Positions 31,749 to 51,771 of a stretch of 64,000 nt of DNA are shown piece by piece. The stretch spans positions 1 to 64,000 of the forward strand of contig CAZWDO010000015.1 in the NCBI GenBank assembly GCA_964632485.1. The letters run 5' to 3'. Made by a program: the position numbers and the translations under genes. The first letter of the stretch is position 1. The number at the start of each line of letters is the position of its first letter. This DNA comes from an uncultured bacterium (GTDB lineage: Bacteria; JAGOEH01). The notes under the pieces were generated by a model. The model was given only the letters and a program-made list of their open reading frames with translations, made no database searches and was not told where the DNA came from.

Positions 31749-31823
31749 TCGGGGCGACTGGATTCGAACCAGCGACCCCAAGCCCCCCATGCTTGTGCGC
31801 TAGACCAACTGCGCCACGCCCCG
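31749..31823 (-). tRNA. tRNA-Pro(GGG), CCA not encoded
   Basis: CGGGGCG/CGCCCCG acceptor stem, CAAGC-ATGGGGG-GCTTG anticodon arm, GGTTCGAATCC T-arm; follows a MerR gene as in the common merR-tRNA-Pro arrangement. Confidence 0.96.
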
Positions 31824-45193: not shown

Positions 45194-46438
45194 ATGTTGC
45201 CTATTGCGCTTAGCTCTGAACATAAAATGAAATGGCTAATCTATGTATGCTATCACTTTCCAAAGATATCGGAAACTTTTATACTGGAAGAATTGCGCCA
45301 TTTATCTCACTGTTACTTATTAGCGGTTGTAGCGCTTAATAATCCCCGCGAAAATGGAATTGAAACCCCTCCCTATTTACAGCAGATTTTTTATTTTGAG
45401 AATACATTTCGAACAAAAAAGGGGTATCAGCATTTAGTTCAAGCGATTTTATGGTTCCTAATCCGGCGTCCAATCCGTCTTCTTGAAGCATGGGCGTTAC
45501 TACCGGACTGCAAACAATGGACTCTTTATCTTGCTGGAATACTTTTTGCATTTAAGTACCGTTCAATCTCACCGATGCATATTCATGCGACATTTTCCGC
45601 TGAAAGCGCCACAATGGCTGCGATAATGGCAAAACTTCTCAATCAATCATATTCGGTGACAGACCAGGCCCAGGATTATATCGCTAAAATGACTGGAATC
45701 TATGCTCATTTAAAGCAAAGCTCTTTATTTTTTACCAGTTGTCTTTATACTAAAAAACAATTACTCAAACAAAATCCTTATATCCCCTCAGAGAAAATCA
45801 AAATTGTATATTCCGGAATCGATCCTGATCGGTTTCAACCCTCAGCGGAGTTGAACCCCGACAATCGATATCGATTAATTACAGTGACCCGTTTTATTGA
45901 TACAAAAGGGTTACCTGATATTTTCCATGCGCTGGCCCTAATTATAAAAGATTATCCCTTTATTCAATATGATCTTATCGGTAGTGGCCCACTTCAATCT
46001 GCACTTTATCGTCTGGCTGTTAATCTTCAGATCAATGACTTGATTCATTGGCGGAATGTTATTCCCAATCAGCAATTACCAGACTATTATCGACAAGCGT
46101 CAATATTTATCTTACCCTGTGTAATTACACCGCGTTTGGTAGAGGATAGCCTTCCCTTGGTGATCGGAGAGGCCATGGCTGCTGAGTTGGTTGTTATCAC
46201 AACACCGGTCGGAGGGATCCATGAATTGGTAAAACACAATTACAATGGAATTATCGTAAAACCGCGATCACCGCAAATGATTGCCTCCGCCATCCGACAT
46301 ATCTTTGAAGAAACCGAATTTTATCGTCCTATTCGAATCAATGCGCGTACGTCAGTGATAAAATATTACAATTCCAAATTGGAAAAATTAAAATTAGTCG
46401 GTTTATACCGGCAATATGAAAAAAAATTATTTATATGA
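45194..46438 (+). CDS. Glycosyltransferase family 4 (WcaL-like)
   Basis: FPKISETFI, TKG, EAMA, GGIHELV. Confidence 0.9.
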   Translation: MLPIALSSEHKMKWLIYVCYHFPKISETFILEELRHLSHCYLLAVVALNNPRENGIETPPYLQQIFYFENTFRTKKGYQHLVQAILWFLIRRPIRLLEAWALLPDCKQWTLYLAGILFAFKYRSISPMHIHATFSAESATMAAIMAKLLNQSYSVTDQAQDYIAKMTGIYAHLKQSSLFFTSCLYTKKQLLKQNPYIPSEKIKIVYSGIDPDRFQPSAELNPDNRYRLITVTRFIDTKGLPDIFHALALIIKDYPFIQYDLIGSGPLQSALYRLAVNLQINDLIHWRNVIPNQQLPDYYRQASIFILPCVITPRLVEDSLPLVIGEAMAAELVVITTPVGGIHELVKHNYNGIIVKPRSPQMIASAIRHIFEETEFYRPIRINARTSVIKYYNSKLEKLKLVGLYRQYEKKLFI

Positions 46439-46612
46439 TAGTGTCAATATTTAAGATATGCGTCAATTGACTTAATATTTGGCATACAAATTTTTTCTTT
46501 AAATCAAATTATACTCAATATCAAATCTAAATTTAAAAAAGGCAGATTATAACCCATTGGTATTTAAGGGTTAAAAAAAAATATTCCACTAATTAAAATA
46601 ATATGATATGTT

Positions 46613-46628
46613 TGGCACGGAAGATGCA
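46613..46628 (+). promoter_or_regulatory. sigma54 (-24/-12) promoter
   Basis: TGGCACGGAAGATGCA: GG-N10-GC spacing, one mismatch to TGGCACG-N4-TTGCW. Confidence 0.7.
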
Positions 46629-46638
46629 ACTATTATAA

Positions 46639-46756
46639 GTACCCCTTTATAAAGATAAGATCGCGGGAGACCGCGAATCTTATCGACTCCCAACCCATTT
46701 TGCTTCAAAACCTCCAAAAAGACTGGGGCCCCCCAGGGTCCCAGTCTTTTTATTTT
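46639..46756 (+). ncRNA. Putative sigma54-dependent small RNA (about 115 nt)
   Basis: Downstream of the sigma54 motif with no plus-strand ORF; 13-bp stem with GAGA tetraloop, C-rich linker, intrinsic terminator. Confidence 0.55.
46716..46756. terminator. Bidirectional intrinsic terminator
   Basis: AAAAAGACTGGGGCCC-CCCA-GGGTCCCAGTCTTTTT-ATTTT. Confidence 0.85.
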
Positions 46757-46866
46757 GGTTTTCCAGTAAATCAATGATAATCAACGCTCAAAAATTTAAT
46801 GTCAATTAATTTTCCAACCTTGTATTTATTGAAGTAGATTATAAATTTATAACACGACGGCAACCA

Positions 46867-48384
46867 TTATTTCAAAAATTTTCCAATATGCGGCAATGCC
46901 TGAATCCATTCGGCGTGATGATGGCCGCCGGGATAGATATAGTACCGATGAGAAATAGAACGGGCAATCAACAGTCGATGAAATTCATCAACAACCGGTA
47001 ATAATCCCAGTTCATCGTTTTGGCCTACTCCCAACCAGATTGACGGGATAGATTTGATAACAGATTGATTTACAATAGTAAATGGGTTTTTGTCGCCGAT
47101 TGGGGCGTTCAATACACCCGCAATTGATATAATACCTTTGAACAAACCCGGATAGCGAAGCCCTATGCTCATGGCGGCTAAGCCTCCCAGAGAATAGCCC
47201 ATAATCCACCGAATCGGCGCATCTCCTGCCAGGCGCGCAAGTTTTTTTTCAGCGATGGGGATTAATTCTCGGATAAACGAGGCTTCATAATCAATTCCAG
47301 TCGCCGTATTCTTCATATAAGCGGAACCCGGACTGCCGGCTACGGCAATCATAATGAATTTTGGGAGATTACCCTGCCGTATAAGAGTGTCGTAAACGTT
47401 TGGCAAATTGCCCTGAACAAACATCCTGTGGCTTTCGCTACCGCCCCCGAAGGCATAAATAATCGGAAGGGGCGTTGAACAAGTTGCAAAATTTTCGGGT
47501 AAATATACTCCATAGGGGCGGAATTCACCGACGATCGGAGAAAAGTAGGTGTCTGTATAGCAGCGGGCCTGGTCACCTGTCCAGGAATGTCCCTCAAAAA
47601 AGAACGAATCAGGGTAAACATAGTATTCCCCTGTCTTTTTATCTTTTAATCTCAAATTGACCAGATAAGCGGTCCGATTATCCTGATACTCTTTTTGCGC
47701 TACAATTTCGGCATTTTCAATATCACTATTTGGATAAAAAACAGCCTGATACGATGAATGATTTAATATTTTCCGGTTATATCCTTTTTGGAAAAAAGTG
47801 GTATTAATTGATTGTGAATTGGAGTATTGTGGTCCTTTAATCGCCGATTCAATCCAAAGACGAGATAAGGGTGAAATATTAGGCGCGAATCGCCATTTTT
47901 CATTTTTAAAAAATAATGATGCGCTATAAAGCTCCGGAATATTATCCGGTAAGCCAATCTGGCCCTGGCGAGTATCTATCACCCACTGGATTCGGTGAAC
48001 TGTTCCTATTGTCCGCCCGGGGGGTATGATAAAAAAAAAATCAACCCAGTTTTCAGGTTTCCATCCATTGGTTTTGCTACCCGCGCTACCGATTAATTCA
48101 TTATCCCAATAGATGGATGCGATATCATAAATACGGCCTATTTTTAGAATTAACCACTCATTTTGTAAATAATTAGGTAATTTAACTTCATAATTCACTT
48201 TAATGTTTCTTAGATTTTTATATAATATTCTTGAAGATTTATCATTGACATAAAACTGTTTTATCTGATTATGTCCGATATCTATTTGATATGTACCGGT
48301 TAAAACTATTTGTGATATCGGTTGGCTATAAATTTGAGTGACAAAGAGGGCTAAAATGAGTAGTGAAGTGGTGAATCGAAGCAT
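46867..48384 (-). CDS. Secreted alpha/beta-hydrolase esterase (CE1/Fes-like) with N-terminal beta-sandwich
   Basis: Signal peptide; VYLP, GYSLGG nucleophile elbow, GQND, PGGH. Confidence 0.8.
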   Translation of the reverse strand: MLRFTTSLLILALFVTQIYSQPISQIVLTGTYQIDIGHNQIKQFYVNDKSSRILYKNLRNIKVNYEVKLPNYLQNEWLILKIGRIYDIASIYWDNELIGSAGSKTNGWKPENWVDFFFIIPPGRTIGTVHRIQWVIDTRQGQIGLPDNIPELYSASLFFKNEKWRFAPNISPLSRLWIESAIKGPQYSNSQSINTTFFQKGYNRKILNHSSYQAVFYPNSDIENAEIVAQKEYQDNRTAYLVNLRLKDKKTGEYYVYPDSFFFEGHSWTGDQARCYTDTYFSPIVGEFRPYGVYLPENFATCSTPLPIIYAFGGGSESHRMFVQGNLPNVYDTLIRQGNLPKFIMIAVAGSPGSAYMKNTATGIDYEASFIRELIPIAEKKLARLAGDAPIRWIMGYSLGGLAAMSIGLRYPGLFKGIISIAGVLNAPIGDKNPFTIVNQSVIKSIPSIWLGVGQNDELGLLPVVDEFHRLLIARSISHRYYIYPGGHHHAEWIQALPHIGKFLK

Positions 48385-49872: not shown

Positions 49873-51771
49873 ATGACCGGGATTTATGATTTATGGTTGC
49901 GGAAAGAACTGGATCTCTTAGAATCGGTATCGATTCAACGGATAGCTGACAATCGCTACAAGGATTGGCAATGCTATTGCAGTGAAACGATTTTTTCAGC
50001 ATCTGGATTTCGGCGTATTTTTGCAGCGGACGGGGATGAACAATCCGACAATCCGGCAATCACTCAATACGATTTTATTTTAACATATTTCTCTGCGCTG
50101 GTATTCGCTGAATTTATCCAAAAACAAAAGCCAGGTCAAAAAATCATCACAATCGCTATCGGGCGGGATACCCGTCCCACCGGTATCTTATTGGCGTCCA
50201 TTGTATATTTCGCCTTAATTAAAAATGGGTTCCACCCTCTCTATTTAGGTATCACTGCCGGACCCGAAATTATGGCTTTTGCCAATCAAACCGATTCTAT
50301 TGATGGTTTTTTTTATCTGACCGCCAGCCACAATCCTCCCGGCCACAATGGTTTTAAATTTGGTTTGCAACAGGGTGTTTGCAATGGAGCAGAGGTCGGA
50401 GAAATCCTTACCCAATTCCATCGCCAGGTGGAAGCGGAAGCCGAAGTGGTCAAATCCCTTATCAAAGAGTATGAGGCATCTTTAAATCAGTTTCACACGT
50501 ATTATCAATTTTCGCCCTTATTTAAAATTGTGAGTGAAACGGCTTATCAGCGTTTTTTGCATAAAATTTTCTGGGGTGATGTTGCGAATGCTTCTTCATT
50601 GGAGCATTCATTCAGCCAGGCAATCCATGAAGCGCAAATTGGCATAATAGCTGAATTCAACGGGAGTTCGCGAATTTTATCAGTAGATAAAAAGCTGTTG
50701 CTTGAAATGGGTTTAATATGCCATTGGATGAACGATACACCCGGAGTTTTTGCGCATGCGATTGTTCCCGAGGGGGATTCCCTGAATATGGCTGCCAAAG
50801 CCCTTGAACAATTCCGGCAGAATGGCCACCCGGTTCATTTTGCTTATGTTCCTGATTGTGATGGCGATCGTGGAAACCTGGTAATATGGAATGAACAAAC
50901 CCATTTGGCAGAAGCATTGCCGGCCCAGACCGTTTTTGCGCTATCAGCAATGGCAGAAATCGGTTATGCCTGGTTAACCGGTCAAATGACCCATGAAACG
51001 CGCAATGCTATTATTGTCAATGATTGCACCTCTGGAATGCTTGATCGGGTCATGGCCCGTTTGCCGATAAATATTATCAGGGTTGAAACTGGTGAAGCCA
51101 ATGTCGTGAACCGCGCTCTACAATTAGAACGCGACGGGTGGATCGTCCGCATTATTGGCGAGGGCAGTAATGGCGGCAATATAACCCGTCCCTCCAATAC
51201 ACGCGATCCGCTTTCTACGGTAGTTGCCATGCTGAAACTACTAGTTTTCAAATATCATGGTCAGTCGATCTACCAGTTTTTCGCTGGGATGCTCTCTAAT
51301 GCCGAAATTACAATCCCGGCAATGCCTTCAATTGCCGATTATATCAACTTGCTGCCAAAATTTATTACTACGAATGCTTTTGATGTGGGTTCCGTTATGA
51401 AGATTCGATCGCGGAACCAAATCAGTCTTAAACACGCCTTTGAAGAAGCTTTTCTGAGCAGTTGGCAGACAGATGCCCCTGCATTCAAAGAAAAATATAG
51501 GTTCGTCTCCTATCGGGAAATTAATTATGAGGGAGTCGAAGCCCATTCTGGATGGGGCGAAGGCCATCGTTCCGGCGATCAGAGTGGGGGATTGAAAATC
51601 GAATTACTAAATGATAAACAGGAAGTCGCCGCCTGGCTTTTTTGGCGCAAATCAAAAACCGAGGATTTAGTGAGAACAATTGTCGATATTGATGCCGGCA
51701 CGGTCGAGTCAGAAAAATTTTGGCGCGATTGGCTCCGGAATGTTTTAAACCAAGCCGATACAACGAGGTAA
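49873..51771 (+). CDS. Divergent alpha-D-phosphohexomutase
   Basis: SASGFR, GRDTRPTG, TASHNP, DCDGDR, GEGSNGG, RKSKTE. Confidence 0.85.
   Translation: MTGIYDLWLRKELDLLESVSIQRIADNRYKDWQCYCSETIFSASGFRRIFAADGDEQSDNPAITQYDFILTYFSALVFAEFIQKQKPGQKIITIAIGRDTRPTGILLASIVYFALIKNGFHPLYLGITAGPEIMAFANQTDSIDGFFYLTASHNPPGHNGFKFGLQQGVCNGAEVGEILTQFHRQVEAEAEVVKSLIKEYEASLNQFHTYYQFSPLFKIVSETAYQRFLHKIFWGDVANASSLEHSFSQAIHEAQIGIIAEFNGSSRILSVDKKLLLEMGLICHWMNDTPGVFAHAIVPEGDSLNMAAKALEQFRQNGHPVHFAYVPDCDGDRGNLVIWNEQTHLAEALPAQTVFALSAMAEIGYAWLTGQMTHETRNAIIVNDCTSGMLDRVMARLPINIIRVETGEANVVNRALQLERDGWIVRIIGEGSNGGNITRPSNTRDPLSTVVAMLKLLVFKYHGQSIYQFFAGMLSNAEITIPAMPSIADYINLLPKFITTNAFDVGSVMKIRSRNQISLKHAFEEAFLSSWQTDAPAFKEKYRFVSYREINYEGVEAHSGWGEGHRSGDQSGGLKIELLNDKQEVAAWLFWRKSKTEDLVRTIVDIDAGTVESEKFWRDWLRNVLNQADTTR

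Follow-up and report, generated by a model that had tools for sequence, protein, structure and literature searches.

A candidate sigma-54-dependent small RNA of a bacterium known from metagenome assemblies, and its short C-rich relatives

The intergenic region and its predicted RNA

The window analysed here is a stretch of 64,000 nucleotides from a bacterium that is known from metagenome assemblies only. Within it, a gap of 428 nt separates two convergent genes, a glycosyltransferase gene on the plus strand and an esterase-family gene on the minus strand (Table 1). A first-pass annotation of the window had described four features in this gap: a sigma-54-type promoter, a hairpin with a GNRA loop, a C-rich linker, and a strong terminator. 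All four are present, at the positions listed in Table 1, and the sequence of the gap is invariant across the contigs of four DNA runs that we compared.

Table 1. Features of the gap and its flanking genes (window coordinates), and predicted sigma-54 regulon sites elsewhere in the genome
Feature	Position	Strand	Remarks
Group-1 glycosyltransferase ORF	45194-46438	+	Upstream neighbour of the gap
Candidate enhancer-binding protein sites (tentative)	46442-46472		TGTCAATATTTA at 46442-46453; near-palindrome CGTCAATTGACT at 46461-46472
Sigma-54 (-24/-12) promoter TGGCACGGAAGATGCA	46613-46628	+	Matrix rank 26 genome-wide
Predicted sRNA, ~110-118 nt	46639-46756	+	Predicted +1 to U-tract after terminator
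5'-terminal C-rich motif GUACCCCUUUA	46639-46649	+	Family consensus GURCCCCWUUA; unpaired
Copy-specific hairpin, GAGA (GNRA) loop	46654-46684	+	G46654-C46684, 13/14-nt arms; from the fold; insertion in the alignment
Unpaired linker	46685-46715	+	CUCCC 46687-46691, AACCCA 46692-46697, AAACCUCC 46708-46715
Intrinsic terminator, bidirectional in form (A5...T5 flanks)	46716-46751	both	16 pairs, 8 of them G-C, then ATTTTGG
Esterase-family ORF	46867-48384	-	Convergent neighbour of the gap
Predicted sigma-54 regulon sites	G000:C3:94519, C3:209127, C12:49746, C3:118921, C3:37063, C18:47647, C2:214456, C6:8343		

The region of the predicted RNA (46639-46756) contains no plus-strand ORF of at least 40 aa. 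On the minus strand, a TTG-initiated ORF of 61 aa (46589-46774) was considered and rejected: GGAG is absent upstream of it, and it has no counterpart at the other loci described below, whose sequences were read by eye. Across the window, Rfam yields a single match that reaches its gathering threshold, a tRNA gene at 31749-31823 on the minus strand. No Rfam family matches the RNA of the gap at that threshold, in agreement with the first-pass annotation, which did not recognise the family either.

We placed the +1 at G46639, presuming the usual distance of 12 nt from the -12 GC, and this position agrees with the start guessed in the first pass. The predicted fold of the RNA from this base to 46756 has an energy of -47.1 kcal/mol (z = -8.65), which none of 200 dinucleotide shuffles equalled. 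Each C-rich motif outside the terminator is predicted to be single-stranded, with a mean P(unpaired) of 0.98-1.00, and the CCCC of the 5' motif has a mean of 1.00. At the DNA level the linker region contains ACTCCC at 46686-46691 and ACCTCC at 46710-46715, and the motif AAACCUCC continues as AAA into the terminator stem. The terminator is the only plus-strand terminator-like site between 46300 and 47000, and transcripts of the convergent esterase gene, like any read-through from the glycosyltransferase gene, may stop there too.

Judged by the generic consensus, the promoter is no better than chance in the window: TGGCAC-N5-TTGCW with at most one mismatch has 2 matches there against 1.65 expected, and at least 2 matches were found in 48 of 100 shuffles. 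The second of these matches, TGGCAATGCTATTGCA at 49966-49981 on the plus strand, lies inside a coding region, is off the local consensus, and is probably a chance match. At the scale of the genome, the pattern TGGCA[CT]N6TGC[AT] has 57 sites, of which 33 are in the roughly 10% of the DNA that is non-coding (the genome outside a crude ORF set), and 28 of these 33 are located between -4 and 428 nt upstream of a co-oriented ORF. The consensus of such sites in this genome is TGGCAC-GAAAAN-TGCA, so the apparent mismatch of the flagged site at -14 is normal for this organism. We built a weight matrix from the 28 gene-proximal promoters, leaving out the flagged site and a sister site on contig C8 that is described below. 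On this local matrix the flagged site scores 22.7 bits and ranks 26th of all positions on both strands, while the sister promoter ranks 4th.

The first-pass annotation had named the presence of rpoN as a check, and we found two full rpoN genes and one fragment, with one copy in each of two related genomes. There are also 17 strong sigma-54 activator (enhancer-binding protein) genes, so that a -24 GG/-12 GC element with the correct spacing, rpoN, and enhancer-binding proteins are all present. Most intergenic sigma-54 sites have a close downstream gene. Four do not (five counting a site on contig C13, where a terminated RNA precedes the next gene), and two of these, the flagged site and the C8 site, are alike. 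The earlier suggestion that the promoter is an orphan, driving a sigma-54-type transcription unit that serves no protein gene, is supported.

A family of short C-rich RNAs

We compared three genomes of this rare phylum: the one studied here (G000), one from the same family (G001), and one from the same order (G002), which are related rather than independent. A sigma-54 promoter followed by a short spacer and CCCC occurs in the three genomes at one locus in each relative and at two in G000, namely the flagged gap and the site on contig C8. When CCTCC is required 25-85 nt after a sigma-54 promoter, exactly the same four loci are found in them, compared with one locus in a reversed control. The promoter-free pattern CCCCWTT...ACCTCCWAA yields a fifth locus, on contig C3 of G001. 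The resulting group of five loci (two in G000, two in G001, one in G002) is, as far as its sequences tell, a new sRNA family of a well-known kind, which we label the Delongbacteria-type C-rich sRNA. The first-pass annotation was right about the kind of RNA, and it overlooked that the RNA belongs to this small family, one member of which has a sigma-70-type promoter.

The four short members are predicted RNAs of 60-70 nt that share the 5' end GURCCCCWUUA and carry AAACCUCCWAA next to the terminator, on its 5' side. The promoter is of the sigma-54 type in three of them, and the fourth has a sigma-70-type promoter that would start transcription at about the same base. At all four sigma-54 loci, including the flagged one, GTRCCCC follows the promoter after 10 nt, which places G-U-R-CCCC at the same offset in 4/4; in the flagged RNA this element is GTACCCCTTTA, beginning at 46639, in the register of the 3 other loci. 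At its other end, AAACCTCCAAA (46708-46718) abuts the terminator, and its CCUCC has a P(unpaired) of 1.00. The order of elements after the promoter is GUACCCCUUUAUAAAG ... AAAACCUCCAAA and terminator at the flagged locus and GUGCCCCAUUACCCCAUAAACCUCCUAAUAA and terminator at G000:C8:96148 (minus strand), where the short RNA of 60-70 nt is predicted at G000:C8:96137. The G002 member, which is downstream of nrdD-nrdG, is shorter and consists of GUGCCCCUUUAAAGACCUCCUAAA plus a terminator. In 4/4 complete RNAs the conserved C-rich motifs are predicted to be unpaired (mean P(unpaired) 0.80-1.00), and the next gene is convergent in 3/3 of the sigma-54 loci with known downstream DNA. A leaderless GUG frame seen in the C8 and G001 copies was rejected: in G002 it ends after 3 codons, and the flagged copy has no start codon.

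These motifs bear on the reading in which the gap holds no RNA gene and a promoter-like match lies by chance beside the bidirectional terminator of two convergent genes. A terminator is expected in such a place, and the generic promoter match in the window is, as noted above, not beyond chance. However, over both strands of this genome GT[AG]CCCC[AT]TTA has only 4 occurrences, of which 2 coincide with the +1 of sigma-54 promoters, and A[AG]ACCTCC[AT]AA occurs 7 times, 2 of them directly before the terminators of both sRNA loci. That motifs with only 4-7 genomic copies recur in the same order and register at the flagged locus and at C8 has a negligible probability by chance, and the whole arrangement is also present in two other genomes of the phylum. 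We therefore regard a chance arrangement as extremely improbable. From its sequence, the gap very probably contains a real, transcribed sRNA gene.

The sister copy on C8 was invisible to BLAST within its own genome, where no paralogues were found, and it was detected via the promoter scan alone. The exact promoter plus 5' motif, searched in 185,579 species genomes, was found in the two relatives only, and among metagenome contigs the same exact pattern occurs in one contig, which is identical to the G002 locus.

The C8 copy and the copy on G001 contig C258 are syntenic, both being divergent from gyrA-metK, and they allow a direct comparison. The two RNAs are identical over nt 1-31 and differ again from the terminator on. 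Ahead of the promoter, by contrast, the intergenic sequences can hardly be aligned at all, and the neighbouring GyrA proteins are 73% identical. The terminator stem has one compensatory change, U-A to C-G, which is seen with the complete stem of G001:C3. The pattern is that of purifying selection on the predicted single-stranded part of the RNA.

In G001, the second copy (G001:C3:12157-12233) has an RNA nearly identical to that of G001:C258, located behind TTGACA-16-TATATT (11/12), a sigma-70-type promoter whose predicted start is at most 1-2 nt away from the 5' end of the other copy. As judged from these promoter sequences, the two copies are a natural swap of promoter class within one genome. 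A near-identical RNA behind a promoter of another class indicates that the RNA module, and not the promoter, is the conserved unit.

The flagged copy is the long form of the family. Its 5' motif is closest to the G002 variant, and it also shares the pre-terminator motif; between the two, the alignment shows a 31-nt hairpin and extra CUCCC/ACCC motifs. The first-pass annotation had looked to related genomes for conservation of both the promoter and the hairpin. The promoter type and the C-rich motifs do recur there, whereas conservation of the GNRA hairpin is not borne out: the hairpin is missing from all four short members, is not repeated elsewhere in its own genome, and is an insertion peculiar to the flagged copy. 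In the three genomes, the long form was detected in G000 and not in the two relatives. The relatives' orthologues of the flanking genes (the glycosyltransferase in G001 and the esterase in G002, both at 46% identity) have neither a sigma-54 site nor the 5' motif in the flanks retrieved.

We made a covariance model, R1, from the four short members, with the flagged copy left outside it. In the 64-kb window the flagged copy is the best match (16.2 bits, with a rough E of 0.0039), and its 31-nt insertion splits the match. In a search of the whole genome it is absent from the matches with E<=1. The members score 63-95 bits, and the 16.2 bits of the flagged copy lie under the terminator-like noise of 24-32 bits in 148 unrelated genomes. 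Among these 148 genomes of other phyla (151 genomes were searched in all), nothing scored above 32 bits, and the weak matches in the three genomes of the phylum are plain terminators. With so weak a score, the family membership of the flagged copy rests on the joint architecture of its motifs and not on the model. On that architecture, the flagged RNA is probably a member or paralogue of the C-rich family.

The same observations raise the question of whether we are looking at a relic, or at a duplicate of a conserved short sRNA that evolves neutrally; it may then be transcribed and have no function of its own, or be no longer active. It is present in one genome only without a syntenic counterpart, and it has the hairpin insertion, a diverged middle, and the weak model score. 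Decay, however, would be expected to strike the promoter, the motifs, and the terminator first, and here the promoter is in the best 26 of the genome, both family motifs are intact and unpaired, and no feature of the region is stronger than the terminator. We consider a relic improbable.

We also considered that the RNA might be a cis-acting or 3'-UTR product, made by read-through from the glycosyltransferase gene and processing, or acting, by way of the terminator common to both, on the esterase mRNA at its 3' end. Read-through would indeed include the RNA, since there is no other plus-strand terminator between the glycosyltransferase stop (46438) and 46716, and the short member in G002 lies 75 nt downstream of a co-oriented nrdG-like gene. 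But the neighbours differ from locus to locus (esterase, SNF2 helicase, GH20 hydrolase, gyrA), so there is no conserved cis partner, and each copy has its own promoter positioned for the same 5' end. This makes a cis or 3'-UTR origin very unlikely in comparison with an independent sRNA gene.

Candidate regulation, mode of action, and known counterparts

Paired elements of the TGTCAA/TTGACA type, 18-20 bp apart, are found 65-170 bp upstream in all four sigma-54 loci. At the flagged locus these are TGTCAATATTTA and CGTCAATTGACT, 20 bp apart and ~140-170 bp upstream of the promoter. The best non-low-complexity 10-mer shared by the four loci is GTCAATTGAC; when intergenic windows were drawn at random in 300 sets of four, one set shared a word equally well. 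Among the 33 intergenic sigma-54 promoters the closest GTCAATTGAC-type match is that of the flagged locus, with 2 mismatches, and 77 of 2670 background windows do as well. At C8 the match has 3 mismatches, a level that ~18% of background windows reach. The word contains TTGACA, the sigma-70 -35 box, and is weakly distinctive at any one locus. Genome-wide matches to TGTCAATTGACA are confounded by such -35 boxes, and one other match is near a sigma-54 promoter (C13:114405). The upstream repeats are tentatively a candidate activator site. No activator gene is adjacent to a family member at any locus.

As we picture it, sigma-54 RNA polymerase would start at G46639 and stop at the terminator, giving an RNA of ~115 nt, and an enhancer-binding protein may help initiation by binding the GTCAATTGAC-type repeats ~150 bp upstream. 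The C-rich stretches would then pair, independently of Hfq, with the G-rich ribosome-binding sites (GGAG/GGAGG) of target mRNAs, and this pairing would block the initiation of translation. In the interval from -15 to -6 of ORF starts, GGAG shows an enrichment of about 13-15 fold that a CTCC control does not share. Shine-Dalgarno-led initiation therefore appears to be common in this organism, and an exposed CCUCC or CCCC could pair with such sites. We did not find Hfq in this 98%-complete genome, which together with the C-rich motifs fits the largely chaperone-independent class of C-rich sRNAs (RoxS/RsaE). We take the family motif ACCUCCU to be the ribosomal anti-Shine-Dalgarno core. Two short motifs did not locate the 16S 3' end in the assembly, so this identity rests on what is general in bacteria.

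Target prediction did not single out any mRNA. Duplexes computed with ViennaRNA duplexfold between three unpaired sRNA segments and 3194 crude initiation regions had the same energy distributions as those of 5 shuffles of each segment, and most of the top-ranking regions were G-rich or had questionable start sites. For each of two seeds, a search near start codons for exact or near-exact complements gave one weak match, none of them near-perfect at a start site, and a pattern search of Shine-Dalgarno contexts for targets was uninformative. None of these scans turned up a persuasive site that is conserved. Among 19 enhancer-binding-protein and rpoN genes considered as targets, the best was the second rpoN copy, at a non-significant rank of 29 of 3194 with the C8 RNA. 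As the real and shuffled RNAs could not be told apart by their predicted targets, we infer repression by anti-Shine-Dalgarno pairing from the motifs, and hold it to be plausible, somewhat short of probable.

A competing view is that the RNA is made and acts as a decoy or sponge, with its ACCUCCU stretch titrating a protein or many RNAs that carry Shine-Dalgarno sequences. The conserved motif is essentially a generic anti-Shine-Dalgarno core with no specific target that stands out, each RNA has several C-rich motifs, and sigma-54-driven decoy sRNAs such as CrcZ provide a precedent. On the other hand, short members of 60-70 nt with two or three motifs are small for a sponge, no candidate C-rich-binding protein was identified, and perfect identity over 31 nt between family-level relatives exceeds the repeated motifs, suggesting a defined pairing partner. 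We think a decoy unlikely. For the flagged gap as a whole, we lean towards an independent sigma-54-dependent sRNA gene that is a long paralogue of the short family and would block initiation by C-rich pairing.

The kind of molecule proposed here, a sigma-54-driven sRNA with a C-rich seed, is well known and involves no new principle. The Qrr RNAs of Vibrio are sibling, multi-copy, terminator-ended sRNAs that share a single-stranded region and have orphan, LuxO-dependent sigma-54 promoters with upstream activator sites; they depend on Hfq. The family described here resembles them in its orphan sigma-54 promoters, candidate upstream sites, and short sibling RNAs, and differs in that no Hfq was found in G000 and in being unrelated in sequence, activator site, and phylum. 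A permissive Rfam search of 46400-46900 (E up to 10) gave 12 matches, and Qrr was not among them.

GlmY functions through protein mimicry, GlmZ is an activator of glmS, and neither is a C-rich anti-Shine-Dalgarno RNA. Their sequence and structure are unrelated to those of the flagged RNA, which has no Rfam match to them. In excerpts of the published work on Enterobacteriaceae, GlmY/GlmZ show an interchange of sigma-54 and sigma-70 promoters with a shared start site (PMC3045617), which resembles the relation between G001:C258 (sigma-54) and G001:C3 (sigma-70-type).

The best plus-strand sub-threshold Rfam alignment is to RsaE/RoxS (RF01820), at 23.0 bits against a gathering threshold of 79 and an E of 0.15 in the 501-nt search. 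The three short-member loci that were scanned gave no match. Passages of one study describe the C-rich regions of RsaE/RoxS as pairing with Shine-Dalgarno sequences and blocking initiation, and report that deletion of hfq had no major effect in an assay (PMC4409812). Like the flagged RNA, RsaE/RoxS of the Bacillales has a 5' hairpin, unpaired regions of the UCCC/CCC type, a terminator, and a length of ~100 nt. Unlike it, RsaE/RoxS belongs to another phylum and is under the control of ResDE/SrrAB rather than sigma-54, and in the new family one conserved motif is at the very 5' terminus and the other abuts the terminator. Portions of a report on CJnc230 (FlmE) of Campylobacter jejuni describe an RpoN-dependent RNA with a single-stranded anti-Shine-Dalgarno motif between stem-loops and also an RpoD promoter (PMC11187230). 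In contrast to the flagged RNA, CJnc230 is processed from the flgE mRNA instead of having an orphan promoter, its motif is CCUU, and its sequence and lineage are unrelated.

Almost nothing is known of RNA regulation in candidate phyla represented by metagenomes only, and no title among the listed literature matches for this phylum names a regulatory RNA. Here sequence alone is enough to define an sRNA family: its promoter class is clear, its seed is conserved, and nature has swapped the promoter of one copy. The family also gives a handle on the output of sigma-54 signalling, in the form of an RNA that can be synthesised, a promoter for reporters, and a candidate activator site. If the proposed mechanism holds, the family would be a further independent case of C-rich, chaperone-free anti-Shine-Dalgarno sRNAs arising repeatedly in bacteria without Hfq. 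A more speculative and, in our judgement, doubtful extension is that the sibling sRNAs form a phylum-wide RNA output arm of the sigma-54/enhancer-binding-protein pathway, an analogue of Qrr invented independently in an Hfq-less lineage, with promoter classes interchangeable between copies and the long paralogue adding C-rich seeds. On this view, were the pairing as general as the motif implies, induction would damp the translation of many strongly Shine-Dalgarno-led mRNAs and not just that of a few targets.

Other sigma-54 sites in the genome

The site on contig C13 mentioned above (G000:C13:66881-66896, minus strand) is a sigma-54 promoter with a matrix rank of 21. Downstream of it lies a predicted RNA of ~110 nt with a very strong terminator and a CACCCCAC stretch (fold z = -6.56). 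The gene that comes immediately after this RNA encodes a sigma-54 activator of the response-regulator type (C13:65135-66604). This could be a second sRNA or a leader/attenuator. BLAST found no match to it in the two relatives.

A consensus sigma-54 promoter is found 58 nt ahead of the second rpoN copy, whose product has 454 aa (G000:C19:58865-58880, minus strand), and this suggests auto-regulation or a cascade. A partial rpoN-like stretch at G000:C10:1838-2065 contains a TAG stop.

Sigma-54-type promoters are also located ahead of groES-groEL (G000:C4:100643, minus strand) and dnaK (G000:C24:40789, plus strand), so the main chaperone genes of this organism appear to be sigma-54-dependent. The region upstream of dnaK has TGACA/TGTCAATATT elements 20 bp apart. 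Among the members of the predicted sigma-54 regulon (Table 1) are giant secreted proteins whose C-terminal tails are of the type-IX-secretion kind, a TonB-dependent receptor, and a serpin, as well as a flagellar rod protein and GGDEF/EAL proteins. Two identical high-scoring sites, TTCTGGCATGAAAACTGCATAT, are found at G000:C13:114670 (plus strand), where a G+C-rich stretch without a clear ORF follows, and at G000:C47:5208 (minus strand), and they may be part of a repeated element.
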